A stretch of 46,940 nt of DNA from a virus. The stretch lies in the IMG/VR virus record IMGVR_UViG_3300025117_001212; one strand, 5' to 3'. Shown here in pieces: positions 1,671 to 46,940 of the stretch (its first letter is position 1; the number at the start of each line of letters is the position of its first letter). The translations under genes and the position numbers were made by a program. The notes beneath the pieces are model-generated. The model ran no database searches, had not been told where the DNA came from, and was given only the letters and a program-made list of their open reading frames with translations.

Positions 1671-3557
1671 ATGGCAAGTAGTAGACGATTACCATTAGCA
1701 TATAACGAAAGCACTTATGATAGTGCTGGTGGTAAAGACTATTCTGTACTATCGGTATGGGAGGGTGCTACTGATATCGATTTAGTTACCGCTGAAGCAG
1801 GTGAAATTTTAAATTGCTATGCGGGGGCACATGATGATTATGTCACTATCGATGGAGCCACTGTTAGTTCTTCATATTTTCGTGTTATTAGACCGGCAAG
1901 CGGAGAAGGTCATGTCGGTATTCCAAAATATGATGGGTCTGTAGTTGCCTTTGTATCTTCAGCCAGCACTGCACAATTATTTTATCTTGGCGAAAATTAT
2001 ATTGGTATTTATGATTTATGTTTGCAATTCAATAGAAGTTACGCTGGAACTACACGACATGTATATGCTCCCGCAGCAGGGGCATATTCGAAAACTGTTG
2101 GAGATCTAATATCAGGAGCTTCTAATGCTGATGCATCTGGGGTTTTGGTTGGTATTGATTTGCGAGGGGCTTATTGTGTTATTGCAAATAGTCTTGTTGC
2201 TAGAGTAAGTGGCGGAACCAGTATTACTTTATTCAGTTTAGCAAAAAATACAGGTGTTATTTATAATTGTACAGGTGTACAACCATCAAGTGCTGGATGG
2301 GGCATATATGCTTCTGAAGCTGGTACATTAGCTAAAAACTGTATCATAGTCAATGCTGCAATTCATGCTAATGTTACGCAAACTACATGTTTAACTAGTA
2401 ATCCCACCTATGTAGATTCCGATAATGATGATTTTCATTTATCATCGGAAGATACTATAGCAAAAGATCAAGGAACAGATTTAAGTGGAGATGGGGCTTT
2501 TGCTTTTGATGATGATATTGATGGTGAAACACGTAGTGGTACTTGGGATATAGGATTTGATGAATATATTGAACCTAGTTCTAGTTCTTCTAGTGAATCA
2601 AGTTCATCACAATCTAGTAGCTCTAGCTCTCAGTCTTCTAGTTCTTCAATTTCAAGTAGTAGTAGTTCTATAAGTTCTAGTGAATCTAGTAGTTCTAGTG
2701 AATCTAGTAGTAGTAAATCAAGTTCAAGTATTTCTTCTAGTAGTTCATTAGCTTCTTATATTGAAATTGAAGATATAGGAATTCAATCTTCTAGTTCAAG
2801 TATATCAAGTTCTAGTTCCCAATCAAGCTCTATATCTTCAAGTAGTTCTATTTCAAGTTCTTCTCAATCTAGTAGTTCTAGAAGTAGTTCTTCATCATCT
2901 CAAGAATCTAGTTCATCTAGTGAAAGTTCCTCTAGTTCAACTTCTAGTTCTTCCCAATCAAGTTCTTCACAATCTAGTAGTTCTAGTTCACAATCTTCTA
3001 GCTCCCAATCATCATCATCAACTTCAAGTAGTTCTAGTTCTACTTCTAGTTCTTCACAATCATCTTCTTCTACTTCTAGTAGTTCAAGCTCTAGTAGTTC
3101 ACAATCTAGTTCTTCGCAATCTTCTGAATCAAGTAGTTCACAATCATCATCTTCGCAACAATCTAGTTCATCTGCTTCATCAAGCTCTGAAGCGATGGAT
3201 ATGGATAGATATCCATCAACACCAATTCCTGTAGCCACATGGGAAGAAAGTTATGAATTTAAAACAAATATTCTTGAAGCTGTGAATGGTTCAGAACAGA
3301 GAGATAAAAAATGGAGTAATCCTAGAAGAAGATTTAAATTAAGATATCTGTATGAAGATGTTACTGACGGGTTGTGGTGGTTTGCTATTGGGCATAATGG
3401 TATTGCAGATAGTTTTATATTTGACCCACATGATTTTTTACCTACGCTATATGAATCAGAAGAAATCACAATGAGATTTGCTTCAGATGAAATAGGAAGA
3501 AGCATAGTTATAGATGGGATATATAACTTAGACATAGAATTGGTAGAGGTGAAGTAA
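1671..3557 (+). CDS. Tail protein: beta-helix-like N-domain, poly-Ser linker, DUF2460/distal-tail-like C-domain
   Basis: DDFHLSSED...WDIGFDEY motif, a ~200 aa Ser-rich tract, then FKTNILEAVNGSEQR..W..PRRRFKLRY typical of distal-tail-like domains. Confidence 0.65.
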   Translation: MASSRRLPLAYNESTYDSAGGKDYSVLSVWEGATDIDLVTAEAGEILNCYAGAHDDYVTIDGATVSSSYFRVIRPASGEGHVGIPKYDGSVVAFVSSASTAQLFYLGENYIGIYDLCLQFNRSYAGTTRHVYAPAAGAYSKTVGDLISGASNADASGVLVGIDLRGAYCVIANSLVARVSGGTSITLFSLAKNTGVIYNCTGVQPSSAGWGIYASEAGTLAKNCIIVNAAIHANVTQTTCLTSNPTYVDSDNDDFHLSSEDTIAKDQGTDLSGDGAFAFDDDIDGETRSGTWDIGFDEYIEPSSSSSSESSSSQSSSSSSQSSSSSISSSSSSISSSESSSSSESSSSKSSSSISSSSSLASYIEIEDIGIQSSSSSISSSSSQSSSISSSSSISSSSQSSSSRSSSSSSQESSSSSESSSSSTSSSSQSSSSQSSSSSSQSSSSQSSSSTSSSSSSTSSSSQSSSSTSSSSSSSSSQSSSSQSSESSSSQSSSSQQSSSSASSSSEAMDMDRYPSTPIPVATWEESYEFKTNILEAVNGSEQRDKKWSNPRRRFKLRYLYEDVTDGLWWFAIGHNGIADSFIFDPHDFLPTLYESEEITMRFASDEIGRSIVIDGIYNLDIELVEVK

Positions 3558-3585
3558 AATAGTTAAAGTAAAATATCATGATTTG

Positions 3586-3594
3586 TGGTATAAT
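3586..3594 (+). promoter_or_regulatory. Extended -10 promoter (TGnTATAAT)
   Basis: TGGTATAAT in an AT-rich intergenic gap upstream of GGAGG RBS and ATG 3637. Confidence 0.5.
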
Positions 3595-3636
3595 ATTATT
3601 AAGAATAATATTTTAATAATCATAACGGAGGACATA

Positions 3637-3957
3637 ATGAAAAAGGCAATCATCACCTTGGCAATCATTCTTTTCACTTCGACGGCATGGGCTGGACCTT
3701 TTCTGGTCTGCGACCCCTACCAGGCAGAAGTGGCCGTTACCCACTTTCAGATGAAGGACAATGGGGTGCCTGTTCAAGTCCCCTATGCCCTTCACACGGA
3801 CGGGTCGGCAATCGTGCTGGACCTTGGGCCGCTCGACAACGGCGCTCACCAGATAACCGATATCCAAGCGTGTAATGTCCGGGGGTGCTCGGAACCCCCT
3901 TTGGCATTCGCTGTACCCGGACTGCCCGGATCACCAAGTCTACGGATCGTGCCGTAA
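3637..3957 (+). CDS. Small secreted protein with signal peptide
   Basis: GGAGG RBS, then MKKAIITLAIILFTSTAWA-GPFLVCDP (AxA cleavage site); GC-rich. Confidence 0.7.
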   Translation: MKKAIITLAIILFTSTAWAGPFLVCDPYQAEVAVTHFQMKDNGVPVQVPYALHTDGSAIVLDLGPLDNGAHQITDIQACNVRGCSEPPLAFAVPGLPGSPSLRIVP

Positions 3958-4122
3958 TTGAGGAAGTGAAATGGAAATGCAAATAAGGGGGCATCATGCC
4001 TCATTGGTGTAAACATAGAATATTTTCAAAGCAAGTTGACGTAGATATTTTAGATGGGCCAGTCCCTTGTCATTGCAAATTTTGGCAAAGACTGTGGTTC
4101 ATTGTTACCAGGAGGTAGCATC

Positions 4123-4347
4123 ATGACAGACCTTAACCTAACCGGCCAATCCACATCAGCAGGCCAGATCCAGACCAGGATCAATCAACTCAAGACGGCG
4201 ATGGACCTGCGGCTGGCAGTCTGGAACAAACTCTCGGACGAGAAGAAAAAGAAGTGGGTCACAAGCGGCAAAGACCCGATCATGACGTTGGCTTGGAACG
4301 TCTACAAATACCTGCGGGACAACTTCTTTGCTCAGGGGGTGGAGTGA
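4123..4347 (+). CDS. Hypothetical protein (GC-rich module)
   Basis: GGAGG RBS before ATG 4123; TGATG overlap with the next gene. Confidence 0.65.
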   Translation: MTDLNLTGQSTSAGQIQTRINQLKTAMDLRLAVWNKLSDEKKKKWVTSGKDPIMTLAWNVYKYLRDNFFAQGVE

Positions 4348-4700
4348 TGGGTAACTACTCACTAGGCATTAAGCCCCTGCCGGACGTTGAAAACGGCCAC
4401 ACGTTCACGGGGGACAACTTCCTGCAACTTCTGCCCCATACCAAGATATTCGATGGGAAGGCGGGGTTGACGTTCGTGAGCTGTAATCTCACTAATTGTG
4501 ACATCCCTGCCGACTCTGTGTGTGTCATGTGCAGGCCCGTCCAACTCGGCTTTTGCTCCCATGTCCACCCGAACCTTGTTAAACGTGGGTTGCCGGAGTG
4601 CGCCGTCAACTGTGAGCATGTGGTCGATACCGACACCATTACCATTGATGGCGTGGTGGTCGATACCGTTTATCACTATGACGTAAAGGCGGTGGAATAA
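4347..4700 (+). CDS. Cys-rich hypothetical protein (GC-rich module)
   Basis: ATG overlaps the upstream stop; TAATG overlap with the next gene. Confidence 0.65.
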   Translation: MGNYSLGIKPLPDVENGHTFTGDNFLQLLPHTKIFDGKAGLTFVSCNLTNCDIPADSVCVMCRPVQLGFCSHVHPNLVKRGLPECAVNCEHVVDTDTITIDGVVVDTVYHYDVKAVE

Positions 4701-5725
4701 TGACAACGCGATATGTTGATCCGGCTGCAAGTGGGGATAACGACGGCACGAGCTGGACGAACGCTTACGAAACTCTTCAGCAGGCGGCTGACAACGCCGT
4801 CGCCGGGGATGTCGTTTATTGCCGTGGGACTGAGACGCTTGCGGCCAGGGTGGACTTTGACACCCAAACCGGCACCAACGCCGGGGGGTTCATCAAATTT
4901 GTCGGGTGTAATGCTGAGGGGAATGTTGACGGGACGCGGTTTGTGCTGGACGGGGACGGCGGGAATTATGCGGGGATTTACATTGTACCGGGGATAAGCA
5001 CCCTTTGGTTCGAGAACATCAGGGTGACGAATTGCGACGGGGGGAGTAGCGGGTTTGGTTTTCAAGCCACTGCTTGGAATGCAGGATATGGATGTGTGTT
5101 TATAAATTGTTGCTCCGATGGAAATTATTATGGGTTTCAAGGTGGTGCTAATTCGCTTGTTTTTAGGTCCGTTGCTTACTCAAATACGGTTTATGGGTTT
5201 AGTGTTCAAGGAATGATAAAGTTTATTTTTTGCGCCGCCAGGGATAATGGAGTTGGCTCTGGATGGAACTCCTCCGCAAATTGTATGCTTATCGCTTGCA
5301 TCGCTCACGGAAACGGTGAAGACGGAATAGGTCTTTCAGTAAATGGGTGTCTTTTTAATTGTGTAATAGATGGTAACATCGATGACGGAGTGGTTAGCCT
5401 AGCCTCTACTTCGGAAGGCGCCTTCTGGTCCCTCATCGGTTGTCGCATTACCAACCACTCAGGGGCCGGTGATATCGGCCTGAACGCCAACACCGAGGTC
5501 ACAGTGTCCGGTTATTGCTACTTCGAGGACAACGACGGCGACAACATCCAGAACGCCACGCTCCACCAGTTCATACCAATAGAGGGTGGTTCAACCACCT
5601 CCAACGAAGAGGACCAGGCCGACACAACCGAGGGCTATACCAGCACGACAGGCGGCTCTGAAGACTTCAACCTCCGCTCCGACGCCACATTACGCCGGAC
5701 GGCAATCACCATCCCGTGGAGCTAG
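4700..5725 (+). CDS. Pectin-lyase-like right-handed beta-helix protein (tail spike/fibre-like)
   Basis: YVDPAASGDNDGTSWTNAYETLQQA N-terminal motif, Asn/Gly beta-helix repeats, EDFNLRS cap. Confidence 0.7.
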   Translation: MTTRYVDPAASGDNDGTSWTNAYETLQQAADNAVAGDVVYCRGTETLAARVDFDTQTGTNAGGFIKFVGCNAEGNVDGTRFVLDGDGGNYAGIYIVPGISTLWFENIRVTNCDGGSSGFGFQATAWNAGYGCVFINCCSDGNYYGFQGGANSLVFRSVAYSNTVYGFSVQGMIKFIFCAARDNGVGSGWNSSANCMLIACIAHGNGEDGIGLSVNGCLFNCVIDGNIDDGVVSLASTSEGAFWSLIGCRITNHSGAGDIGLNANTEVTVSGYCYFEDNDGDNIQNATLHQFIPIEGGSTTSNEEDQADTTEGYTSTTGGSEDFNLRSDATLRRTAITIPWS

Positions 5726-5733
5726 GGGTTTAG

Positions 5734-7152
5734 ATGGCATCGAACGAATATCAGATTTCAGCCGGCCTAGTCCCGATTGACAACTCCACGGGGGCGACCA
5801 GTAACGCCTATTACATTGCGGCGGGGCTGGTGCCGGGGGATACGGAGGCGGGCGGGGAATCAAGTAGTTCTAGTGAATCTAGTTTATCCGAATCTAGCTC
5901 GTCTAGTACATCTAGTTCTTCTCAATCTAGTAGTTCTAGTAGCTCACAATCTAGTTCTTCTAGTGAATCTAGTAGTAGTAAGTCAAGTTCTTCTCAATCT
6001 AGTAGCTCTAGTGAATCTAGTTCATCACAATCATCTAGTTCATCTAGTGAAAGTAGTAGTTCACAATCATCTAGTTCTAGTGAAAGTAGTAGTTCACAAT
6101 CATCTAGTTCTAGTGAGAGTAGTTCATCACAATCTAGTTCATCTAGTGAGAGTAGTAGTTCACAATCATCTAGTTCTAGTGAAAGTAGTAGTTCACAATC
6201 ATCTAGTTCTAGTGAGAGTAGTTCATCACAATCTAGTTCATCTAGTGAGAGTAGTTCATCACAATCTAGTTCTTCTAGTGAGTCTAGTTCATCTAGTGAA
6301 TCTAGTAGTAGTGAGTCAAGTTCATCTAGTGAATCTAGTAGTAGTGAGTCAAGTTCATCTAGTGAATCTAGTAGTAGTGAGTCAAGTTCATCTAGTGAAT
6401 CTAGTTCATCACAATCTAGTTCTTCTAGTGAGAGTAGTTTATTACATCTCAGTTCGTCTTCATCAAGTGAATCGTTAAGCTCTTCAAGCAAATCAAGCAG
6501 TTCTAGTACGTCAAGTTCATCACAGTCTAGTAGTTCTAGTGAAAGTAGTAGTTCTAGTAAATCTAGTTCTTCGCAATCAAGTAGTTCTTCTACTTCTAGT
6601 TCATCACAATCATCTAGTTCTAGTGAATCTAGTTCTTCACAATCGAGTTCATCTAGTGAATCTAGTTCATCACAATCAAGTTCTAGTACTTCTAGTTCAT
6701 CACAATCTAGTTCTTCTAGCGAATCGAGTAGCTCACAATCGAGTAGCAGTTCGATTTCTAGTAGTTCACAATCATCTAGTTCTAGTGAATCAAGTTCATC
6801 ACAATCTAGTTCTTCTAGCGAATCGAGTTCTTCACAATCATCTAGTTCTAGTGAAAGTAGTAGTTCACAATCATCTAGTTCTAGTGAAAGTAGTTCATCT
6901 AGCACTTCAAGTTCTTCACAATCAAGTAGTTCAAGCGAATCATTTCATCCACTATCAAGTTCAAGTAGTTCTCAATCAAGTTCTTCTATCCAAAGTAGCT
7001 CTTCACAGTCAAGCAGTTCTACAGTTTTTACAGATCTATCAGATCCATCTATTGTTTTCAAAGTTGATAAATTAATAACAAATTTCAAAGTTGATAAATT
7101 AATAACAAATTTCAAAGTTGATAAATTAATAACAAACTTTAAAGTTTCTTAA
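5734..7152 (+). CDS. Poly-serine protein (~390 aa Ser-rich tract) with a C-terminal 9-aa repeat
   Basis: SSSES/SSSQS repeats with mixed TCN/AGY codons; ends in (FKVDKLITN)x3. Confidence 0.7.
   Translation: MASNEYQISAGLVPIDNSTGATSNAYYIAAGLVPGDTEAGGESSSSSESSLSESSSSSTSSSSQSSSSSSSQSSSSSESSSSKSSSSQSSSSSESSSSQSSSSSSESSSSQSSSSSESSSSQSSSSSESSSSQSSSSSESSSSQSSSSSESSSSQSSSSSESSSSQSSSSSESSSSQSSSSSESSSSSESSSSESSSSSESSSSESSSSSESSSSESSSSSESSSSQSSSSSESSLLHLSSSSSSESLSSSSKSSSSSTSSSSQSSSSSESSSSSKSSSSQSSSSSTSSSSQSSSSSESSSSQSSSSSESSSSQSSSSTSSSSQSSSSSESSSSQSSSSSISSSSQSSSSSESSSSQSSSSSESSSSQSSSSSESSSSQSSSSSESSSSSTSSSSQSSSSSESFHPLSSSSSSQSSSSIQSSSSQSSSSTVFTDLSDPSIVFKVDKLITNFKVDKLITNFKVDKLITNFKVS
7057..7146 (+). repeat. 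27-nt tandem repeat, three copies plus a partial copy
   Basis: ttcaaagttgataaattaataacaaat units at 7057, 7084, 7111. Confidence 0.9.
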
Positions 7153-7171
7153 TTCTTAATCGGAGGGTATC

Positions 7172-9793: not shown

Positions 9794-9824
9794 TTGTATA
9801 ATATCAATAGGAAGGAATGATATT

Positions 9825-14089: not shown

Positions 14090-14959
14090 ATGATAGAATT
14101 TAATAAAATAGTTATTAAAGAATTATTTAGTAATATTTTCGAACATGGGGCATGGACTATTTTTGTTGATGAAAAATATAAAACATGTGACGATGGCGAG
14201 TCCATTCTTGTGAATAATAAAATTTCACTATGTACAACTGTTATGAACCGAAGTGATGATTTAATTAGGTCATTGCCACAAAACATAGAGGATAATAAGG
14301 ATTATCCTAACCTAGAGTTTTTGATATTAGATTATAATAGCTCTAGTAATGAATTAATTAAGCTAATTAATTTTTTATCACAACCATTATATTTAGAATT
14401 AATAAACGAAGGTAGATTAATATTTTATAGGACTGAAGAACCTAGTCATTATAGTATGTCTCATTCGCGGAATATTGCTTTTAAGCAGGCCAAGGGTGAT
14501 ATCGTAGTGAATGTAGATGCTGATAACTTAACTAATAAAGGATTTGCGTCAAAAATAAATCAATTGGCAAATGCTAAACCAGAAATGGCCATTTTTGCAA
14601 AAGGTAAAAGAATGTTAAGAGGCAGACTTGGATTCTATAAAAAAGAATTTATAGAATTACTTGGGGGGTACAACGAAGACTTCATTGGTTATGGTGTAGA
14701 TGATAGAGATATCATGTGCAGAGCTTTTGGGTTAGGATTTACAGCCATGTGTTTTGGAGGTAAATATTTTGGAATAGTAGAGCAAATAATTAAAGAAAAT
14801 AAGACTATAAATATGATTAATCAAAATTGGAAGTATACAGAAAAATTGAACAAAATTATTTCATTTTTTAATTTAGCTTATGGTCTTTATAAAGCTAACA
14901 TAAATAGAAAATGGGGAGTTGTTAATGATCTTAAATCATTTTGGGAATTGGAATTATAA
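14090..14959 (+). CDS. GT2/GT7-like glycosyltransferase whose 3' third is a recoded allele associated with the TnpB cassette
   Basis: ISLCTTVMNR, SRNIAF, VNVDADN, GGYNEDFIGYGVDDRD. Confidence 0.85.
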   Translation: MIEFNKIVIKELFSNIFEHGAWTIFVDEKYKTCDDGESILVNNKISLCTTVMNRSDDLIRSLPQNIEDNKDYPNLEFLILDYNSSSNELIKLINFLSQPLYLELINEGRLIFYRTEEPSHYSMSHSRNIAFKQAKGDIVVNVDADNLTNKGFASKINQLANAKPEMAIFAKGKRMLRGRLGFYKKEFIELLGGYNEDFIGYGVDDRDIMCRAFGLGFTAMCFGGKYFGIVEQIIKENKTINMINQNWKYTEKLNKIISFFNLAYGLYKANINRKWGVVNDLKSFWELEL

Positions 14960-16243
14960 TGTTTTTTAAATCTATAACATATAGAATCTATCCTACTAAA
15001 TCTCAAGAACAGATGTTTAATCAATTCTGTGGTAATAATAGATTTGTTTGGAATCACTTCTTGATGAGAAATATTAAACATCATTTTGTTAGTGGTAAGT
15101 TTATCTTTGGATATGATATGTGTAAGGAGTTAACTAAATTAAAAGAAGAATATGAATGGTTAAAATTATCACCAGCACAATCGCTCCAACAGCAATGTTT
15201 GAATCTTGATAAAGCTATCAAGAATTGTTATAAATCTGAATTTGGATTTCCTAAGTTTAAAAAGAAAGGTAAATCTAAAGAAAGTTTTAAAATAGTTCAA
15301 AGATTTTGGTTTTCTAAATCAAGAAAATCCATAAGAATACCTAAAATTGGATTCATTAGAATTAAGCCTAAAATCAATATTAATTTAAAAGATATCAAGA
15401 ATGTAACCATCAAAAAGATCAATAATCATTGGTATCTTTCTATATGTCATCAATTCAATATCTTTAGAACCCCAATGACTGGGAAAAGAGTTGGATTAGA
15501 TTTAGGAACTGTTAGGTTAGCAACTCTCAGTAATGGTAAAGTGATTGATAAGTTTGAAGACAAAGAATTAGTAAAAAAATTTAAATCAACTCAAAGAAAA
15601 CTAGAAAGGAGAACTAGAAGAAATCGTAAGTATAGAATGAAAAAAATTCAATCTATTAGTCGTGCAAAAACCAAGCAATCACTATCTAGATTGAATAAGA
15701 AACTTAGAGACAAGAGAAAAGATTACTTAGATAAAGTTTCTAAGAAGTTAGTGAAACGATATGACGTGATCTGTATTGAAGACTTGAAAATATCCAATAT
15801 GACTAGACAAGTAAGAGAAAATGAAGATGGATCTCCAAGAAAAAGTGTTAGTGCCAAATCAGGATTGAATAGAGAAATACTCAATCAATCTTGGGGTCAA
15901 CTGATAAACATGTTAGATTATAAATCTAAGTGGTTCAATAAGAGTATGATTAAAGTAGATCCCCATCACACATCACAAAGATGTAGTGAATGTGGATTCA
16001 CTCACAAGAGAAATAGGAGATCACAATCAGAATTTAAGTGCTTAAAGTGTGGTTATGAGCTAAATGCAGATCACAATGCTGCAAAGAATATCAAAAGATT
16101 AGGTATTAGGCAATGGAAAAAAGGCAGCGTAGAATTAAAAAGGTTTGGACGTAACCATGTGGAGGACTCACAGAGTCTAATGAAGCTAGAAAGTTCTATC
16201 TTAGATGGTAGATGCCTTAGAAGTAATTCTAAGGAAACGTCAT
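14693..16243 (+). mobile_element. TnpB cassette 1 (recoded gene end, tnpB, omega-RNA); no tnpA
   Basis: Bounded by a diverged duplication of the glycosyltransferase 3' end starting at 14693 and at 16244. Confidence 0.7.
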
Positions 16244-16251
16244 GGAGCTGA
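14959..16251 (+). CDS. tnpB: TnpB RNA-guided endonuclease (IS200/IS605 family), copy 1
   Basis: YRIYPT N-terminus, GLDLG, IEDL, CSECG..CLKCG zinc finger, NADHNAA; ATG overlaps the upstream TAA; ORF reads through the omega-RNA. Confidence 0.95.
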   Translation: MFFKSITYRIYPTKSQEQMFNQFCGNNRFVWNHFLMRNIKHHFVSGKFIFGYDMCKELTKLKEEYEWLKLSPAQSLQQQCLNLDKAIKNCYKSEFGFPKFKKKGKSKESFKIVQRFWFSKSRKSIRIPKIGFIRIKPKININLKDIKNVTIKKINNHWYLSICHQFNIFRTPMTGKRVGLDLGTVRLATLSNGKVIDKFEDKELVKKFKSTQRKLERRTRRNRKYRMKKIQSISRAKTKQSLSRLNKKLRDKRKDYLDKVSKKLVKRYDVICIEDLKISNMTRQVRENEDGSPRKSVSAKSGLNREILNQSWGQLINMLDYKSKWFNKSMIKVDPHHTSQRCSECGFTHKRNRRSQSEFKCLKCGYELNADHNAAKNIKRLGIRQWKKGSVELKRFGRNHVEDSQSLMKLESSILDGRCLRSNSKETSWS

Positions 16252-16263
16252 TGATAGAGACAT
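16120..16263 (+). ncRNA. TnpB omega-RNA (scaffold to 16243, guide about 16244-16263)
   Basis: ~105 nt block conserved in all three copies, ending GAAACGTCAT, with several hairpins; conservation stops abruptly after it; 5' end approximate. Confidence 0.8.
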
Positions 16264-16501
16264 TCTTAATAGGGCATTTGGACTTGGATTTACGGCTATG
16301 TGTTTTGGTAAGAAATACATAAATGTGGTTACTGAAAAACAAAGTAAAACTATAAATATGATAAACAAGAATTGGCGTTATACTGAAAAATTGAATAAAG
16401 TCATTTCTTTCTTTAATCTTTTGTATGGAATCTATAGAGCTAATGAAAATAGAGAATGGGGAGAGGCACCCCTTATATCATTCAAGGATGTTTCTGTATG
16501 A
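16205..16501 (+). pseudogene. Displaced original 3' end of the glycosyltransferase, still an open frame from an ATG inside the omega-RNA
   Basis: GADDRDILNRAFGLGFTAMCFG... aligns with the last ~88 aa of 14090..14959; its TGA overlaps the next ATG. Confidence 0.8.
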
Positions 16502-17549: not shown

Positions 17550-18659
17550 GTGATGATAAGCACCATAACTTTACTTGAAAATCAAGAGATCTGGTTGAAT
17601 GAATATGCTGAATCAGATCCTGTACAATTGTCATATTTCGCCCCTGGTGGGAATATGGCATTGGATGTAGTTATTACAGGAATTGGTCATATTAAGATTG
17701 ATAGATATATTGCTGATTCTTCTGATGGTACATTTTTCACTGATTCTTCATGGGGAGTAGTTACTGCGTCTCAGTCAGCAGGACATAAAAGGCATACTGT
17801 AGCGATTGATCCTGTTAGTGAATTTATTAAATTCAGATTTACTGAAATAAGTGGGGTTCTTTCTAGTTCTAGTTCGCAATCAAGCAGTTCACAATCAAGC
17901 AGTTCTTCAGCTAGTAGTGAATCTAGTTCTAGTAGTTCTTCACAATCTAGCAGTTCTTCTGTTAGCAGTGGTTCTAGTGCTAGTAGTTCTAGTGAATCTA
18001 GCAGTTCTTCAGCTAGTAGTGGTTCAAGTGCTAGTAGTTCTTCTACTTCTAGCTCTTCTAGTAGTGAATCTAGCTCTAGTTCTCAAGAGAGTTCAAGTTC
18101 TAGCACTTCTAGTTCTTCTAGCAGTGAATCTAGTTCCAGTTCCTCGCAATCTAGTAGTTCTCAAGAATCTAGTAGTTCTAGTGAATCTAGCAGTTCTGAA
18201 GCTTATTTTAAATCTAGTAGTTCTAGTTCTTCAACTTCATCCTTGAGCTCTTCACATTCTAGTGAATCTAGTTCAAGTAGCTCTACATCATCGATATCAA
18301 GTTCTAGTGAATCGTTATCTAGTGAAAGCAGTTCTTCAAGTTCGACGTCAAGCAGCTCTAGCTCTGAAGAATCAAGCTCTAGTTCACAATCGTCTAGTTC
18401 CGAGGAATCAAGCTCTAGTTCCAGTCAATCTAGTTCAAGCAGTTCTGGATCTAGTTGGTCATCTAGTTCTGAATCTTCTAGCTCTAGTGCTTCTAGTGAA
18501 TCTAGTTCAAGCATTTCTAGTTCTAGTACATCTAGTTCTTCGAGTTCCCAGTCGAGTGAGTCTAGTACTTCTTCTAGTTCTCAATCTTCAAGTTCCTCAA
18601 CCAGTAGCGAAGCACCTTCTGCGGTAAGTGTTACTGCGAAGTTGATTATCATGGGGTAG
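17550..18659 (+). CDS. Poly-serine virion-like protein
   Basis: GGAGG RBS; ~250 aa Ser tract inserted before the last beta-strand-like segment (AVSVTAKLIIMG). Confidence 0.7.
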   Translation: MMISTITLLENQEIWLNEYAESDPVQLSYFAPGGNMALDVVITGIGHIKIDRYIADSSDGTFFTDSSWGVVTASQSAGHKRHTVAIDPVSEFIKFRFTEISGVLSSSSSQSSSSQSSSSSASSESSSSSSSQSSSSSVSSGSSASSSSESSSSSASSGSSASSSSTSSSSSSESSSSSQESSSSSTSSSSSSESSSSSSQSSSSQESSSSSESSSSEAYFKSSSSSSSTSSLSSSHSSESSSSSSTSSISSSSESLSSESSSSSSTSSSSSSEESSSSSQSSSSEESSSSSSQSSSSSSGSSWSSSSESSSSSASSESSSSISSSSTSSSSSSQSSESSTSSSSQSSSSSTSSEAPSAVSVTAKLIIMG

Positions 18660-24450: not shown

Positions 24451-24654
24451 TCATTTTATTATTTTAACTTCAAATCGTAACCAAAATCGCGATTGATATT
24501 CTTGAGTAATTATTTTAGGCCCAAAGGCTTCTCCTATAACAATTTCTTTAATGGTTAATATATGTCCAAGATGTACATTGCCATACATGCCATCTTCAAT
24601 TATCTTGATTTTAGTTCCAGGTTTATATAATTTATTGAATGTATACTTATTCAT
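24451..24654 (-). CDS. Small protein of the MNxYT..K.Y..G family
   Basis: N-terminus shared with three ORFs at 31363-32023; ATGA overlap with the upstream gene. Confidence 0.6.
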   Translation of the reverse strand: MNKYTFNKLYKPGTKIKIIEDGMYGNVHLGHILTIKEIVIGEAFGPKIITQEYQSRFWLRFEVKIIK

Positions 24655-28908: not shown

Positions 28909-28939
28909 GGTAGTGTAGGAAAAGAAACCCTACACTACC
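28909..28939 (-). terminator. Hairpin downstream of the HU gene
   Basis: ggtagtgtagg/cctacactacc 11-bp perfect stem followed by a pyrimidine-rich run on the minus strand. Confidence 0.6.
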
Positions 28940-28947
28940 ATTGCGAA

Positions 28948-29295
28948 CTATTTCTTTGCTTTCTTTGAAGCTTTTTTGGTTTTTGTTTCAGCAGGAGTTT
29001 TAATTTCGAGTAGAGATTTTTGAACCAACGAAGAAGTCTTGAATTTTAGAACGTAGTGGGTAGGAACATTAATAGTTCCTCCTGTCTTAGGATTTCTTGC
29101 AACTCTTGCTGGCTTAAGAAGAATTCTGAATGCTCCTACCTTTGGAATTACCAAATGGAAATCTTTTGGATTCTTAATTGCAAGTTCTGTAAGACTTTCA
29201 AATCCAGTCCTTACAACATCAATAAGGTCAGGCATTGGAATTTCTTCGTATCCTTTTTCTTCTTTCATATACTTTGCTATTTCTTGAACGTTCAT
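28948..29295 (-). CDS. hup: HU/IHF-family DNA-binding protein
   Basis: VGAF...ARVARNPKTGGTINVP..LKFK. Confidence 0.9.
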   Translation of the reverse strand: MNVQEIAKYMKEEKGYEEIPMPDLIDVVRTGFESLTELAIKNPKDFHLVIPKVGAFRILLKPARVARNPKTGGTINVPTHYVLKFKTSSLVQKSLLEIKTPAETKTKKASKKAKK

Positions 29296-29308: not shown

Positions 29309-30112
29309 TTAAATGTTAATGGATTTTCTAAATGGATTATCTGTAGCCCAATCTTTATTCAATCTTTCAACAAACATCTTATATAGAACTTCAAAATTTA
29401 TGTCAAGGTTCGCCTCCTTTCTATAGTCATTCACTAGCTGATTTGTAACTTCAACTAGAGATTCTATATTAGAAAATTGAGTCACAATAATATTGTAGGC
29501 AGTGTCTATTATCTGACCAAACTGTGTGTTTCCAAGTTTTACTTCTGTTAATGCGTAAATCAATATTTCAAACTTGTCAACACCAGAAACAAGTAATCCT
29601 TCTTCACTGCCATCTTTTGAAGACTTCCATAGATTTATATAGTATTGCTTGATATTCTCTGGAAGCCCTTCAAACACTTCTTGCTCTACGCATTTAATAG
29701 CAATTGTTTTGAATAATGCTGATACCTGATCAGATCCATGTTTAACTGGAAACAAAATGTCGCCAGTTACACTTTCTTCTATATCATGGATAAGGGCTCT
29801 TTTAATAACTTCTGATGTATCATATCTTTTTAATTTACTATTTTCAAGATCAGCAAACAACATTGCATAGAGGGCAGTATAGAATGAATGTTCAGAAACT
29901 GGATATTTTCCAATATGCGGAGTATTTGAACATCTGTCTATGCTGCATAATCTGCGTGCCCTGAACACAAAATCTGATATATGACGTTTCTCTAATTCTT
30001 TGGAGTTAGAGCATCTACCATTTAAGGTAGAACTTTCTAGTTTCAACGGACTCAATGAGTCCTCCACATGGTTGCGCCCCAACCTTTTTTCACCTAAGCT
30101 GCTTTTTTCCAT
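29309..30112 (-). CDS. HD-domain 5'-deoxynucleotidase (YfbR-like) with a 44-aa N-terminal extension encoded by TnpB omega-RNA
   Basis: VSEHSF, ALIHDIEESVTGDI, DKFE; the first 44 codons are the omega-RNA scaffold. Confidence 0.85.
   Translation of the reverse strand: MEKSSLGEKRLGRNHVEDSLSPLKLESSTLNGRCSNSKELEKRHISDFVFRARRLCSIDRCSNTPHIGKYPVSEHSFYTALYAMLFADLENSKLKRYDTSEVIKRALIHDIEESVTGDILFPVKHGSDQVSALFKTIAIKCVEQEVFEGLPENIKQYYINLWKSSKDGSEEGLLVSGVDKFEILIYALTEVKLGNTQFGQIIDTAYNIIVTQFSNIESLVEVTNQLVNDYRKEANLDINFEVLYKMFVERLNKDWATDNPFRKSINI
29961..30110 (-). ncRNA. TnpB omega-RNA copy 2 (scaffold ends 29981; guide about 29980-29961)
   Basis: Same conserved block ending GAAACGTCAT. Confidence 0.8.
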
Positions 30113-31269
30113 TATCTGATTCCCTTCTTTTTGATATTTATAGCAGCATTATGATCTGCATTTAATTCATATCCACACTTCAAACATCTGAACTCACTTT
30201 GAGATCTCCTATTTCTCTTATGAATGAAACCGCATTTACTACATTTCCTAGAAGTATTCTCAGGATTTACCCTAATCACCTTTTTGTTAAACCAAGAACT
30301 CTTATACTCTAATATTGAAATCAGTTGTCCCCAAGACTGATTCAGTATTTCCCTATTGAGCCCTGATTTAGCACTGACACCACTTCTATGAGATCCATCA
30401 TCAGTTTTATTTACTTGTCTAGTCATATTCTTGATCTTTAAGTCTTCAATGTAGATCATATCATACTTCTTTACTAACTTCTTAGAAACTTTATCTAAGT
30501 AATCTTTTCTCTTGTCTCTAAGTTTCTTATTCAATCTAGATAGTGATTGCTTGGTTTTTGCACGACTAATAGATTGAATCTTTTTCATTTTATGTTTTTT
30601 ATTTTTTCTAGTCCTCCTTTCTAGTTTTCTCTGTGTTGATTTAATCTTTTTCAGTAACTCTTCATCTTCAAATTTATCAATCACTTTTCCATTAGAAAGA
30701 GTTGCTAATCTTACTGTTCCTAAATCTAACCCGACTTTTCTACCTGACATTGGAGTTCTAAATATACTGAATTGATGACAGATATAAAGACACCAATTGT
30801 TCCCTTGCTTTTTAATGGTTACATTTTTAATATCTTTAAGATTAATATTAATTCTAGGTTTGATTCTAATAAATCCAATTTTAGGAATCTTAATTGATTT
30901 TTTAGATTTAGATATTTTAATGTTTTGATTAACCCTAAAACTTTCTTTAGATTTTCTTTTCTTTTTAAACTTAGGAAATCCAAATTCTGATTTGAAGCAA
31001 TTTTTTAGTGCTTTATCTAGATCTAAGCATTGTTGTTGAAGTGGTTGGCTAGGAGATAGTTTTAGCCATTCATATCCTTTATACTGTTTTAATCTAGTTA
31101 ACTCTTTACACATATCATACCCAAACAGGAACTTACCACTAACAAAATGATGTTTAATGTTTCTCATTAAGAAGTGATTCCATGTAAATCTATTATTACC
31201 ACAAAACTGATTAAACATCTGTTCTTGCGATTTAGTAGGATAGATTTTATATGTAAAAGATTTTATCAT
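30112..31269 (-). CDS. tnpB: TnpB RNA-guided endonuclease, copy 2
   Basis: GLDLG, IEDL, zinc finger, NADHNAA; close paralogue of copy 1. Confidence 0.95.
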   Translation of the reverse strand: MIKSFTYKIYPTKSQEQMFNQFCGNNRFTWNHFLMRNIKHHFVSGKFLFGYDMCKELTRLKQYKGYEWLKLSPSQPLQQQCLDLDKALKNCFKSEFGFPKFKKKRKSKESFRVNQNIKISKSKKSIKIPKIGFIRIKPRININLKDIKNVTIKKQGNNWCLYICHQFSIFRTPMSGRKVGLDLGTVRLATLSNGKVIDKFEDEELLKKIKSTQRKLERRTRKNKKHKMKKIQSISRAKTKQSLSRLNKKLRDKRKDYLDKVSKKLVKKYDMIYIEDLKIKNMTRQVNKTDDGSHRSGVSAKSGLNREILNQSWGQLISILEYKSSWFNKKVIRVNPENTSRKCSKCGFIHKRNRRSQSEFRCLKCGYELNADHNAAINIKKKGIR

Positions 31270-31307
31270 TGTTAAAATTTGTTAAGTTATTTAGCTCTTT
31301 AATTTAT

Positions 31308-31336
31308 ATTATACAACAGTTATGCCACAATTGCAA
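31308..31336 (-). promoter_or_regulatory. Sigma70-type promoter for tnpB copy 2
   Basis: TTGCAA-17 nt-TATAAT. Confidence 0.7.
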
Positions 31337-31362
31337 CAAAAATTTTATATATTCATTGAAGA

Positions 31363-31593
31363 TTATGCTTTGATTGGTTTAAATGTACCTTTATTAATTT
31401 CATGTAAGAAAAAACCTTTTGAAAATATATCTATGTGGCCATTGTTATATTTTACAGTAAGAAATAGTTTATTTAAATTTATATTGAGAAAGATTCTAAA
31501 TATTTCAAAAGTATTACTTTCAGGAAATATTGGTTGCAGGTTTTTATATTTACTTCCTATTGGATATTTTTTTCTAAATGTATATGAATTCAT
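31363..31593 (-). CDS. Small protein of the MNxYT.RKKY..G family
   Basis: MNSYTFRKKYPIGSKY; ATGA overlap. Confidence 0.65.
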   Translation of the reverse strand: MNSYTFRKKYPIGSKYKNLQPIFPESNTFEIFRIFLNINLNKLFLTVKYNNGHIDIFSKGFFLHEINKGTFKPIKA

Positions 31594-31823
31594 ATTGGTA
31601 CTAGCCTTTTATCTCTTAGCATTCTTTCAAAAAGTTCAATACTATAGCTGTTTGAATTAATAAATCTAGACTTAACATCAAAGGTTATTACAATTCCGCC
31701 AGGATAACTATCAAATTCCTTAATTGTGTAGATATCATCTTCATTATCCTCCATATAAATTACTCTTTTCATTTTATATTTACTTCCAACAGGATATTTC
31801 TTTCTTATTGTATATAAGTTCAT
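31590..31823 (-). CDS. Small protein of the MNxYT.RKKY..G family
   Basis: MNLYTIRKKYPVGSKY; ATGA overlap. Confidence 0.65.
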   Translation of the reverse strand: MNLYTIRKKYPVGSKYKMKRVIYMEDNEDDIYTIKEFDSYPGGIVITFDVKSRFINSNSYSIELFERMLRDKRLVPI

Positions 31824-32023
31824 TCTATAACTCTTAATTGTGAGTAATGCCAAATTATTTCTCTTCCATCATCTATGCAATTAAGGAGTAAATGGCCAGT
31901 AAAAGGAATATATATATCTTTAACTATGAATTTTTTACCAACATCTTGTGGAGTATTGGTATATTTAATAGGAGTTAATATTGTTCCTGGTTTATATTTC
32001 TTTCTTATTGTATATAGATTCAC
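31820..32023 (-). CDS. Small protein of the MNxYT.RKKY..G family
   Basis: MNLYTIRKKYKPGT; ATGA overlap. Confidence 0.65.
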   Translation of the reverse strand: MNLYTIRKKYKPGTILTPIKYTNTPQDVGKKFIVKDIYIPFTGHLLLNCIDDGREIIWHYSQLRVIE

Positions 32024-33873: not shown

Positions 33874-34194
33874 TTATGTTGAAAGAGTTAATTTAAATGA
33901 AATTCCTCTACGATAACGGTAGTCATCAGTAATGGTGATTGTTAATGTTTTTATCTTGTAGTCATTTAGATTTAAACTACTCCATTTGGTAAATTCTTCA
34001 AGATTTGTGGAACATTTTTCTGATGTTATTACTATTACACCTTCGAGTGATATTTCATTATAACCAAAATTTTCTTGCATCATAACAGCATCAAGTCTGA
34101 ACATTATTGCAAAATTATCATATGTTGTTGGTAAATTTTCTTTAAAATGTTTGATTAAATAATTTTCAAATTTAGTTAGATTATATTTATTCAT
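33874..34194 (-). CDS. Hypothetical protein
   Basis: 106 aa ORF. Confidence 0.5.
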   Translation of the reverse strand: MNKYNLTKFENYLIKHFKENLPTTYDNFAIMFRLDAVMMQENFGYNEISLEGVIVITSEKCSTNLEEFTKWSSLNLNDYKIKTLTITITDDYRYRRGISFKLTLST

Positions 34195-45249: not shown

Positions 45250-45505
45250 TTAAGGTATCTCCTCTCGGGTTACGGTATCCTCGACAAACTGCGTCTCACG
45301 TCTTAACGATAAGAACCCATGATTCCTATCCCACAGAGCTCCAAACTGGATAAATTCGGAGGTGTTTAGTGAGAACAGGTAGCTGGACAAACTCACCTGC
45401 ATACTCGGCTTAACAACCAGCTTAGTCTCGAAGTCAATCATTGTATGCTACGACTCCTTGAATGAATCTAAAAACGAATGTTGACTTGCTACTTCTAAAA
45501 ATGTG
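45250..45505 (-). ncRNA. IscB omega-RNA (guide about 45505-45486; scaffold from GTCAAC at 45485)
   Basis: GC-richer block upstream of iscB; AAGTCAACATT pairs with AATGATTGACTT, followed by AGACTAAG, as in IscB omega-RNA 5' stems. Confidence 0.7.
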
Positions 45506-46503: not shown

Positions 46504-46625
46504 CTCTTCTTTTTACTAATTTCATGACGTTTCCTCTAAGAGGCATCTACCATCTAAGGTAGAACTTTCTAGCTTCAACGGACTCTGTGAGTCCTCCACA
46601 TGGTTGCGTCCCAACCTTTTTGATT
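46504..46625 (-). ncRNA. TnpB omega-RNA copy 3 (scaffold ends 46524; guide about 46523-46504)
   Basis: Same conserved block ending GAAACGTCAT. Confidence 0.8.
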
Positions 46626-46940
46626 TCAAGCTGCTAACCTCAATCCTAATCTCTTAATATTTATAGCAGCATTGTGATCTGCATTCATTGTGAATCCACA
46701 CTTCAAACATCTAAAGTCAGATTGTGATCTCCTATTTCTCTTGTGAGTGAATCCACATTCGCTACATTCTCTTGAAGTGTTCTTAGGATTAACTTTTATC
46801 ACTTTTTTATTATACCAAAGACTCTTATATTCTAACATATTAATCAGTTGTCCCCAAGACTGATTCAGTATTTCCCTATTGAGCCCTGATTTAGCACTGA
46901 CACCACTTCTATGAGATCCATCATCAGTTTTATTTACTTG
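46626..46940 (-). CDS. tnpB: TnpB copy 3 (3' part only; truncated by the window edge)
   Basis: SGLNREILNQSWGQL, zinc finger, NADHNAA. Confidence 0.9.
   Translation of the reverse strand, partial: QVNKTDDGSHRSGVSAKSGLNREILNQSWGQLINMLEYKSLWYNKKVIKVNPKNTSRECSECGFTHKRNRRSQSDFRCLKCGFTMNADHNAAINIKRLGLRLAA

Follow-up and report, generated by a model that had tools for sequence, protein, structure and literature searches.

A TnpB cassette whose omega-RNA scaffold probably supplies the N-terminal codons of a viral HD nucleotidase

The IMG/VR virus record IMGVR_UViG_3300025117_001212 (46,940 nucleotides, the whole stretch analysed and called the window below) carries a tnpB gene of the IS605 type, tnpB2, whose right end abuts a gene for an HD nucleotidase. 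We find that the HD enzyme is probably translated from a start at the 3' end of this element and through its omega-RNA scaffold. A first-pass annotation of the letters had claimed that the omega-RNA doubles as the N-terminal coding sequence of the HD protein; we consider this likely, the scaffold being the only credible source of a start, with translation predicted from the sequence. The following features, all on the minus strand, carry this reading.

30112–31269 (−): tnpB2, 385 amino acids, IS605-type TnpB; with zinc finger, RuvC triad D182/E275/D372 intact; stop TAA at the position of a CAA in cassette 1
29981–30112 (−): N-terminal extension of the HD protein (MEKSS...EKRH, 44 codons), encoded by the tnpB 3' end plus the omega-RNA scaffold; residues 1–36 predicted unstructured, 37–44 predicted to extend helix 1
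29981–30104 (−), 5' limit approximate: omega-RNA scaffold and IS605 right end; stems conserved in three copies
30080–30095 (−): alternative start TTG11, with a cassette-2-specific AGGTGA motif resembling a ribosome site
30053–30067 (−): alternative starts GTG16 and TTG20; GGAGG 5 nt before TTG20, inside a hairpin
30014–30031 (−): right-end hairpin TCTACC/GGTAGA, conserved, with no twin upstream of tnpB1 or tnpB2
29990–30011 (−): terminal hairpin; the segment from TGC to GAAACGTCAT is 20 nt long, against 18 in cassette 1 and 9 in cassette 3, with the pairing kept
29981–29985 (−): element end motif GTCAT (transposon-encoded motif, TEM), present in 3/3 window copies
29961–29980 (−): guide, HD codons 45–51 (ISDFVFR); boundary GTCAT|29980
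29309–29980 (−): body of the YfbR-like HD 5'-deoxynucleotidase, 223 amino acids; R60, H75, H109, D110, E113 and D179 conserved

The junction between the two genes is as first described. The TAA stop of tnpB2 (30114–30112) overlaps an ATG (from 30112) in the sequence TAATG at 30114–30110. The frame that begins there stays open for 44 codons through the scaffold and runs into ISDF, which starts at residue 45 of a 267-amino-acid ORF (30112–29309). No other ATG precedes the conserved histidines (His66 and His75), Met being found only at positions 1, 84, and 246. This ATG is also the most likely start, but the in-frame TTG or GTG codons at positions 11, 16, 20, 23, and 49 had been overlooked.

Potential starts thus include ATG1, TTG11, GTG16, TTG20, and TTG23 before the junction, and ATA45 and GTG49 after it. 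We scored their ribosome sites by pairing to an anti-Shine-Dalgarno motif, for which 42 annotated starts have a median of −6.15 kcal/mol. The scores before the junction are −9.1 (ATG1), −8.3 (TTG11), −4.7 (GTG16), −9.3 (TTG20), and −5.6 kcal/mol (TTG23); the equivalent ATG of cassette 1 reaches −4.0 kcal/mol. Those after it, −2.9 (ATA45) and −1.5 kcal/mol (GTG49), are weaker than 83–90% of the annotated starts. TAATG and ATGA overlaps are also found at other gene pairs of this phage (TAATG at 14959 and 17199). As judged from the sequence, every credible start of the HD protein lies at or inside the scaffold, and initiation at any start before the junction would mean that scaffold DNA is translated. 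The extension itself is peculiar to this protein. Residues 1–71, searched against 1.84 billion representatives, gave three matches (the protein itself, a fragment of the TnpB1 tail, and one HD start), and none of them was another protein joining this extension to an HD domain.

The HD protein matches Pfam PF12917 above the cut-off and is probably a YfbR-like HD 5'-deoxynucleotidase, an activity predicted from its family. Its best homologues reach 61–64%, and it keeps all 36 invariant columns of a 37-row alignment that includes 36 of the 59 homologues found. The start could be scored in the 56 homologues with an RCSN anchor. In all 56, an invariant Phe lies at residue 4–16, and here it lies at residue 48. 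Because this Phe comes so early in the homologues, the native HD start has been lost, which supports the earlier claim that the cassette displaced it. In an AlphaFold model (mean pLDDT 82.9), residues 1–36 are without structure and a single helix spans residues 37–57. On this prediction, the eight scaffold codons nearest the junction stand in for the lost N-terminus, and the enzyme should tolerate the extension.

TnpB2 matches the HTH_OrfB_IS605, OrfB_IS605, and TNB zinc-finger domains, all three above their cut-offs. Its catalytic triad is invariant in our alignments and aligns with that of ISDra2 TnpB (E 2e-44). It is thus probably a nuclease of the IS200/IS605 TnpB (OMEGA) type, for which RNA-guided cleavage dependent on a putative target-adjacent motif (TAM) is predicted. 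TldRs, the nuclease-dead TnpB regulators, are defined by inactivated RuvC catalytic residues, and this identity was rejected for TnpB2, whose triad is intact. Three tnpB copies are present in the window, at 14959–16251 (+), 31269–30112 (−), and, cut by the window end, at a locus ending at 46626 (−); we refer to them as cassettes 1, 2, and 3. At least one further copy is indicated by loose contig ends, whose consensus also shows the GTCAT end motif. The three right ends of the window copies align through GAAACGTCAT and diverge immediately beyond, and we therefore place the start of the guide at 29980, in the Ile45 codon. Cassette 2 retains every one of the 31 scaffold pairs, those of the changed hairpin included; the folding z-score of its single strand is only −1.32, and no Rfam family matched the scaffold.

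The left side of the element is missing. There is no tnpA (no Y1 or serine transposase) among the 64 proteins of the window, and no twin of the right-end hairpin lies upstream of tnpB1 or tnpB2, although relatives do carry left-end hairpins. The left flanks of cassettes 1 and 2 have nothing in common upstream of about codon 3. Cassette 2 is best described as a fixed cassette that would work like an IS605 TnpB; with neither a tnpA in the window nor a left end, it does not qualify as a mobile element. The left junction is clear at cassette 1, where GGTTAT precedes a copy of the cassette's own guide matching at 16/20. That TAM and TEM differ in positions 3 and 5 is reported in bioRxiv 10.1101/2023.03.14.532601, and GTTAT against the end motif GTCAT fits this pattern. 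Relatives with shared left ends have TCAT (three loci) or TGAC (three loci) before the element, T-N-A-Y overall; a fourth locus of the TCAT group is without TCAT, and another group of relatives gave unclear junctions. A target motif of the TTAT type is therefore likely. Nowhere in the window does guide 2 match a site next to TTAT at more than 12/20. A 12/12 match to the guide at +42004 was rejected as a target, there being no TTAT before it, and was taken as chance; a regular-expression test for covariation of guide and end motif in relatives was too noisy and was not used.

Comparison of the three copies separates what cassette 2 inherited from what is its own. All three scaffolds leave the frame KRLGRNHVEDS...GRC open; in TnpB1 it forms a C-terminal tail, and the ATG is also found in cassette 1, within CAATGG. 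The open frame and the ATG are thus inherited element features and not new ones. Two changes are specific to cassette 2. A CAA to TAA change removes the last TnpB codons and creates the TAATG overlap; otherwise, the TnpB2 frame would go on as WKKAA*, resembling the AA ends of several homologues. The 20-nt segment of the terminal hairpin brings the tail frame into register with CAT|ATA. Of the three copies, only cassette 2 ends in frame with the junction codon; both sisters end out of register. Its scaffold and theirs are unlike at 20–23% of columns, differences that may only in part have arisen at this site. By eye, substitutions in the tail frame across the three scaffolds are a mixture of silent and replacement changes, with no evident constraint at the protein level.

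The scaffold-HD junction is bridged by single contigs, without differences, in seven of the eight runs examined, which rules out its misassembly; three of the bridging runs (X1, X3, and X4) may be the source of the window itself, and the listed pieces of X10 do not bridge. No other letters were seen over the HD gene in these contigs and the population looks clonal. None of the contigs of the eight runs skips the cassette, contigs being prone to drop rare variants. The left flank is tied to the right end only through a repeat of about 750 bp (30319–31064), which no listed contig spans. Assemblies P0182–P0184 join the N-terminus of another copy to the C-terminus of tnpB2. They are taken as probable collapses of the shared repeat because the path of the window also includes the intervening 16 kb at equal depth. 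The repeat (30319–31064, −) recurs in the copy at the window end and splits the assemblies; the two tnpB copies (P0061 and tnpB2) have an identical middle and differ at both ends, which suggests gene conversion.

Upstream of tnpB2, two minus-strand features bear on how the HD gene is expressed and on where its original start may have been.

31308–31336 (−): sigma-70-like promoter TTGCAA-17-TATAAT, 10/12 match, likely to drive tnpB2, the omega-RNA, HD, and HU
31339–31356 (−): AT-rich "remnant", ATGAATATATAAAATTTT; more likely promoter-upstream sequence or a small-ORF-type start than an old HD start

The promoter announced by the first-pass annotation is present at 31336–31308. Promoter-like sites are as numerous in the window as in shuffles (16 vs. 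16.4), and this one is the only TATAAT of the window with a TTG-led −35 box at 4/6 or better. The same annotation held that the HD gene is now locked to its cassette. If the phage benefits from the nucleotidase, the promoter and a scaffold-derived start do seem to be needed, but the whole cassette is not, as the tnpB frame could decay; TTG11, which has its own ribosome site, further weakens the need for coupling to tnpB.

The annotation also saw in the AT-rich sequence a seed-mutated MNISDF start, with cassette and promoter inserted between this start and the gene body and the whole cassette locked in. ATGAATATATAAAATTTT at 31356–31339 does match the guide ATATCAGATTTT at 10/12 positions. Among shuffles of the upstream gap, a match of at least 10/12 occurs in 1.5–3.9% and one with an in-frame ATG before it in 0.06–0.3%, a post hoc comparison (local enrichment p 0.003–0.04). 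The ATG lies 6 nt past the stop of the upstream small ORF. Among the 56 homologues, 13 start with MN, 11 have the length of MNISDF, and four start with MNVLDF; cassette 1 does have a seed-mismatched guide copy on its left (16/20). Against this, the sequence is one of 36 non-self sites in the window matching the guide at 10/12 or better, one of them at 12/12, and it is preceded by GAAT instead of a TTAT-type junction motif. Its ribosome site (−0.8 kcal/mol) is among the weakest. Six of the ten matching bases fall in AAATTTT, 32 nt before TATAAT as at the promoter-like site at 9797, and the match stops after 12 nt. The caveat that it resembles starts of the neighboring small-ORF family is well founded, as 13–14 of 18 bases match the starts at 31593 and 34194. 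The homologue closest at the N-terminus starts MNESIADF, with four residues before the Ile and not two; taken with the TTAT motif, this would fit a loss of four codons, the last a Tyr. Plain IS200/605 insertion leaves the target unduplicated, so it would not be expected to yield a left copy of the guide. The left flank, moreover, is joined only via the repeat. The match is weakly enriched locally and is not established as an HD remnant; we regard this origin as doubtful.

The reading of the scaffold as coding sequence has several points against it. The 44 codons in their fixed frame are open in 5.2% of dinucleotide shuffles, and 45% of scaffold shuffles have some in-frame ATG, GTG, or TTG after the last stop. 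The open frame and the ATG are inherited, and a random indel would give the right register one time in three. Such starts arise easily: cassette 1 also has an in-frame ATG (16205) leading into a gene remnant. In a set of 71 distinct, distant tnpB loci from viruses, seven show an ORF of 100 codons whose start falls at −8 to +10 of the tnpB stop. ATG1 owes its duplex score to a bulged pairing, and base pairing partly hides the starts that lie in the scaffold (mean unpaired 0.43–0.56). Covariation in the stems is not significant with three sequences (31/500 shuffles reach the same), and the target motif rests on one junction (cassette 1) and on relatives at 30–38% identity. The intact state of the HD gene may simply reflect a recent insertion.

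These chance levels are not small and speak for a recent knockout, in which the in-frame ATG would be accidental and the HD gene an unexpressed pseudogene that has not yet decayed. The clonal look of the population over the HD gene is compatible with this. In a simulation, an unused 223-codon gene keeps its frame and its 36 invariant residues in 60, 37, 13, and 0.7% of cases at 0.5, 1, 2, and 5% drift; survival in 37–60% at 0.5–1% drift fits a knockout, and the low figures at 2 and 5% speak for a gene in use. Yet enough time has passed for the left end to disappear, about 20% of scaffold columns are unlike those of either sister, the two copy-specific changes both favor translation, and an in-frame TAATG overlap, even if accidental, is expected to yield some product; we therefore hold a knockout to be unlikely. 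Initiation at or after the junction, at ATA45 or GTG49, possibly on a transcript trimmed by TnpB or an RNase and with the scaffold as a 5' leader, is rendered conceivable by the presence of these in-frame codons and by six of the 56 homologues that have only 3–4 residues before the invariant Phe. The very weak ribosome sites described above, the loss of the invariant F48 and of the start of helix 1 that GTG49 would entail, and the textbook rarity of ATA starts make it quite improbable. IStron-like rescue, in which the element would be removed from the RNA and an upstream start rejoined to ISDF, is known for IS605 IStrons (PMC10690162). Here, Rfam gives no group I intron match in the window, its only match being one tRNA, and only 93 nt, which hold the promoter, separate the upstream ORF from tnpB2; such a rescue is highly improbable.

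For the favored reading, translation through the scaffold, the following course can be proposed. A full element would have inserted just after a TTAT-type motif near codon 4 of the HD gene, with the transposase acting in trans. Its left end would then have been lost, fixing promoter, tnpB, and scaffold in place. The element would already have carried the ATG at the tnpB 3' end and one stop-free scaffold frame; the 20-nt hairpin segment would have set this frame in register with the HD codons, and the change from CAA to TAA would have made the TAATG. One transcript would run from the promoter (31336–31308) to a terminator at 28939–28909, and a ribosome that finishes tnpB would reinitiate at the overlapping ATG and read on across the scaffold into HD; TTG11 could serve as a second start. 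The two features that would complete this transcript lie downstream of HD.

28948–29295 (−): HU-like DNA-binding protein, with its own ribosome site
28909–28939 (−): terminator-like hairpin, closing the predicted transcript

A given transcript would act as HD mRNA, or else become guide RNA after TnpB binds it and processes its 5' side. According to PMC10278001, AmaTnpB processes only the 5' end of its omega-RNA, giving a 106-nt scaffold with the 3' side untrimmed, and TnpB proteins cut their own mRNA at the scaffold 5' end, with clear sites in 30/59 orthologues. In cassette 2, the conserved stretch begins some 124 nt ahead of the junction, with the ATG at −132; TnpB binding or cutting would thus separate or mask the start. 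In the IStrons described in PMC10690162, a competing use of the RNA is repressed when TnpB binds it. HD alleles without the cassette, in co-infecting relatives, would be the targets of the guide, a homing independent of TnpA. The guide sequence here comes after GTCAT and not GTTAT, which would spare the cassette from cutting itself. Beyond this, next to excision and splicing, the locus might represent a third mode of life inside a gene for RNA-guided selfish elements. The omega-RNA might have been selected for triple use, as transposon end, scaffold, and obligatory N-terminus, with TnpB gating the nucleotidase as an RNA switch, and each OMEGA element of the phage might have its own way of keeping translation going (duplication of a gene half in cassette 1, read-through fusion in cassette 2, and a stop-free omega-RNA for IscB); we offer this only tentatively.

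Searches for relatives were negative. For the HD protein, three pattern matches in viral contigs gave no confirmed case, and INPHARED gave 21 records with no close relative (at most 31% among the 20 listed). The tnpB2 sequence as a single query gave no confirmed hit in viral and genome contigs, and the scaffold pattern gave none in viral contigs. A 15-mer scaffold scan of 13 of the 64 parts of the metagenome contigs yielded 115 loci, none matching tnpB or the scaffold, and of the 43 viral loci found with a degenerate hairpin pattern, none carries tnpB. Alignment-based searching retained 80 of 471 distant tnpB loci, and blastn showed no similar scaffold in any of these 80. No empty, cassette-free HD allele was found among the homologues, the viral contigs, or the contigs of the eight runs.

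The window is part of a low-GC, large-phage-like contig, and its genes include DNA polymerase III alpha, RecA, HU, RuvC, thymidylate synthase, an amidase, and one tRNA; iscB is also encoded. The HD protein is recorded on contigs of up to 139,835 bp. The 11 runs that contain the stretch, from five studies, are all labeled groundwater or soil metagenome, and no RNA run was found among them. The two sister cassettes are as follows.

14688–16501 (+): cassette 1; in order, GTTAT, one divergent glycosyltransferase 3' half, tnpB1 coupled through TAATG, the omega-RNA, and the other 3' half; source of the likely target motif
46524–46940 (−): cassette 3; tnpB 3' end and omega-RNA, cut by the window end

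Two divergent copies of the 3' half of the glycosyltransferase gene bracket cassette 1. The one upstream, which comes after GTTAT, completes the gene, differs from the guide at three seed positions, and is joined to tnpB1 by a TAATG overlap; the one downstream still has an open frame and ends in an ATGA overlap with the next gene. The whole looks like a cleavage-resistant allele-replacement cassette and may be a stronger case of homing than cassette 2. The guide of cassette 3 (46524–46490, −) reads as the end of a coding sequence (EISKKKRW*) and spans the ribosome site of the gene that follows. In cassettes 1–3, the junction apparently falls on a codon boundary. Upstream of iscB, where its omega-RNA is expected (45250–45441, −), there is a 63-codon open frame whose ATG lies 6 nt past the previous stop and whose TAA abuts the iscB ATG. 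It is open in 1.6% of shuffles for that frame and in 4.7% for any frame, and is a possible ribosome bridge.

Other loci of the window have unusual organizations. DNA polymerase III alpha is encoded in three pieces (37669–32020, −): one of 910 amino acids (37669–34937), separated by about 2 kb of small ORFs from a short piece (32974–32879), and a piece in the +1 frame (32907–32020). The short piece ends ...AFGQYCFP* and the +1-frame piece continues RKAHATSY, the second break falling at TTC CCG TAA, presumably near the motif where DnaE split inteins insert. A family of small ORFs starting MN(L/S/K)Y(T/N) is found at 31363–32023, 24451–24654, and 33874–34194 (−), and three of its members lie in tandem directly upstream of the cassette 2 promoter. 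Several genes at 1671–7152 and 17550–18659 (+) contain long Ser-rich repeats with a 33-nt period and adjoin a cluster of glycosyltransferase, methyltransferase, and epimerase genes; their products are possibly glycosylated virion proteins. Three to four tandem 27-nt repeats (7056–7159, +) end a Ser-rich gene of 472 amino acids.

The component families of cassette 2 are all known. Like the IS200/IS605 TnpBs of ISDra2 (PDB 8bf8/8h1j) and ISGst (bioRxiv 10.1101/2023.03.14.532601), TnpB2 combines HTH, RuvC, and zinc finger with aligned catalytic residues. The right-end scaffold ending in GTCA-N, the flanking DNA used as guide, the TAM/TEM difference at position 3 (seen at cassette 1), and the frequency of transposase-less copies are also common ground with what is reported there. 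Unlike these elements, cassette 2 has no left-end hairpin or tnpA nearby, and its scaffold is open and fused in frame to the interrupted gene. IStrons (PMC10690162) likewise sit in a gene that stays expressible, and their omega-RNA region has a second, TnpB-repressible use, as predicted here; cassette 2 has no group I intron, and rescue would proceed through scaffold translation, adding an N-terminal extension, and not through splicing. TnpA-independent spread or gene drive by TnpB is described in PMC11870625 and PMC13565253; the latter also treats free-standing phage endonucleases, T4 SegB and SegF among them, in connection with intronless homing. Like these, cassette 2 is a fixed phage nuclease cassette predicted to cut cassette-free alleles of co-infecting relatives; unlike SegB and SegF, it would be RNA-guided, its guide being the start of a gene whose translation likely crosses the scaffold. 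The R, H, HD, E, and D ligands of the HD protein align with those of Escherichia coli YfbR (PDB 2paq and 2par; E 2e-11), from which it differs by about 40 additional N-terminal residues derived from the element; its substrate is predicted by family only. In the literature searched, which covered few subscription papers, we found no report of an omega-RNA translated as the N-terminus of an interrupted gene.

The value of this case, a single clonal locus, is that of a clean and long (44-codon) example. If the fusion is translated, a TnpB scaffold carries RNA structure and an enzyme reading frame together, and ribosomes and TnpB would compete for one RNA, a parallel to the conflict between splicing and guide use in IStrons. 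It would provide transposase-less TnpB cassettes with a splice-free means of persisting in tightly coupled phage operons, and may help to explain why such cassettes are common in large phages.

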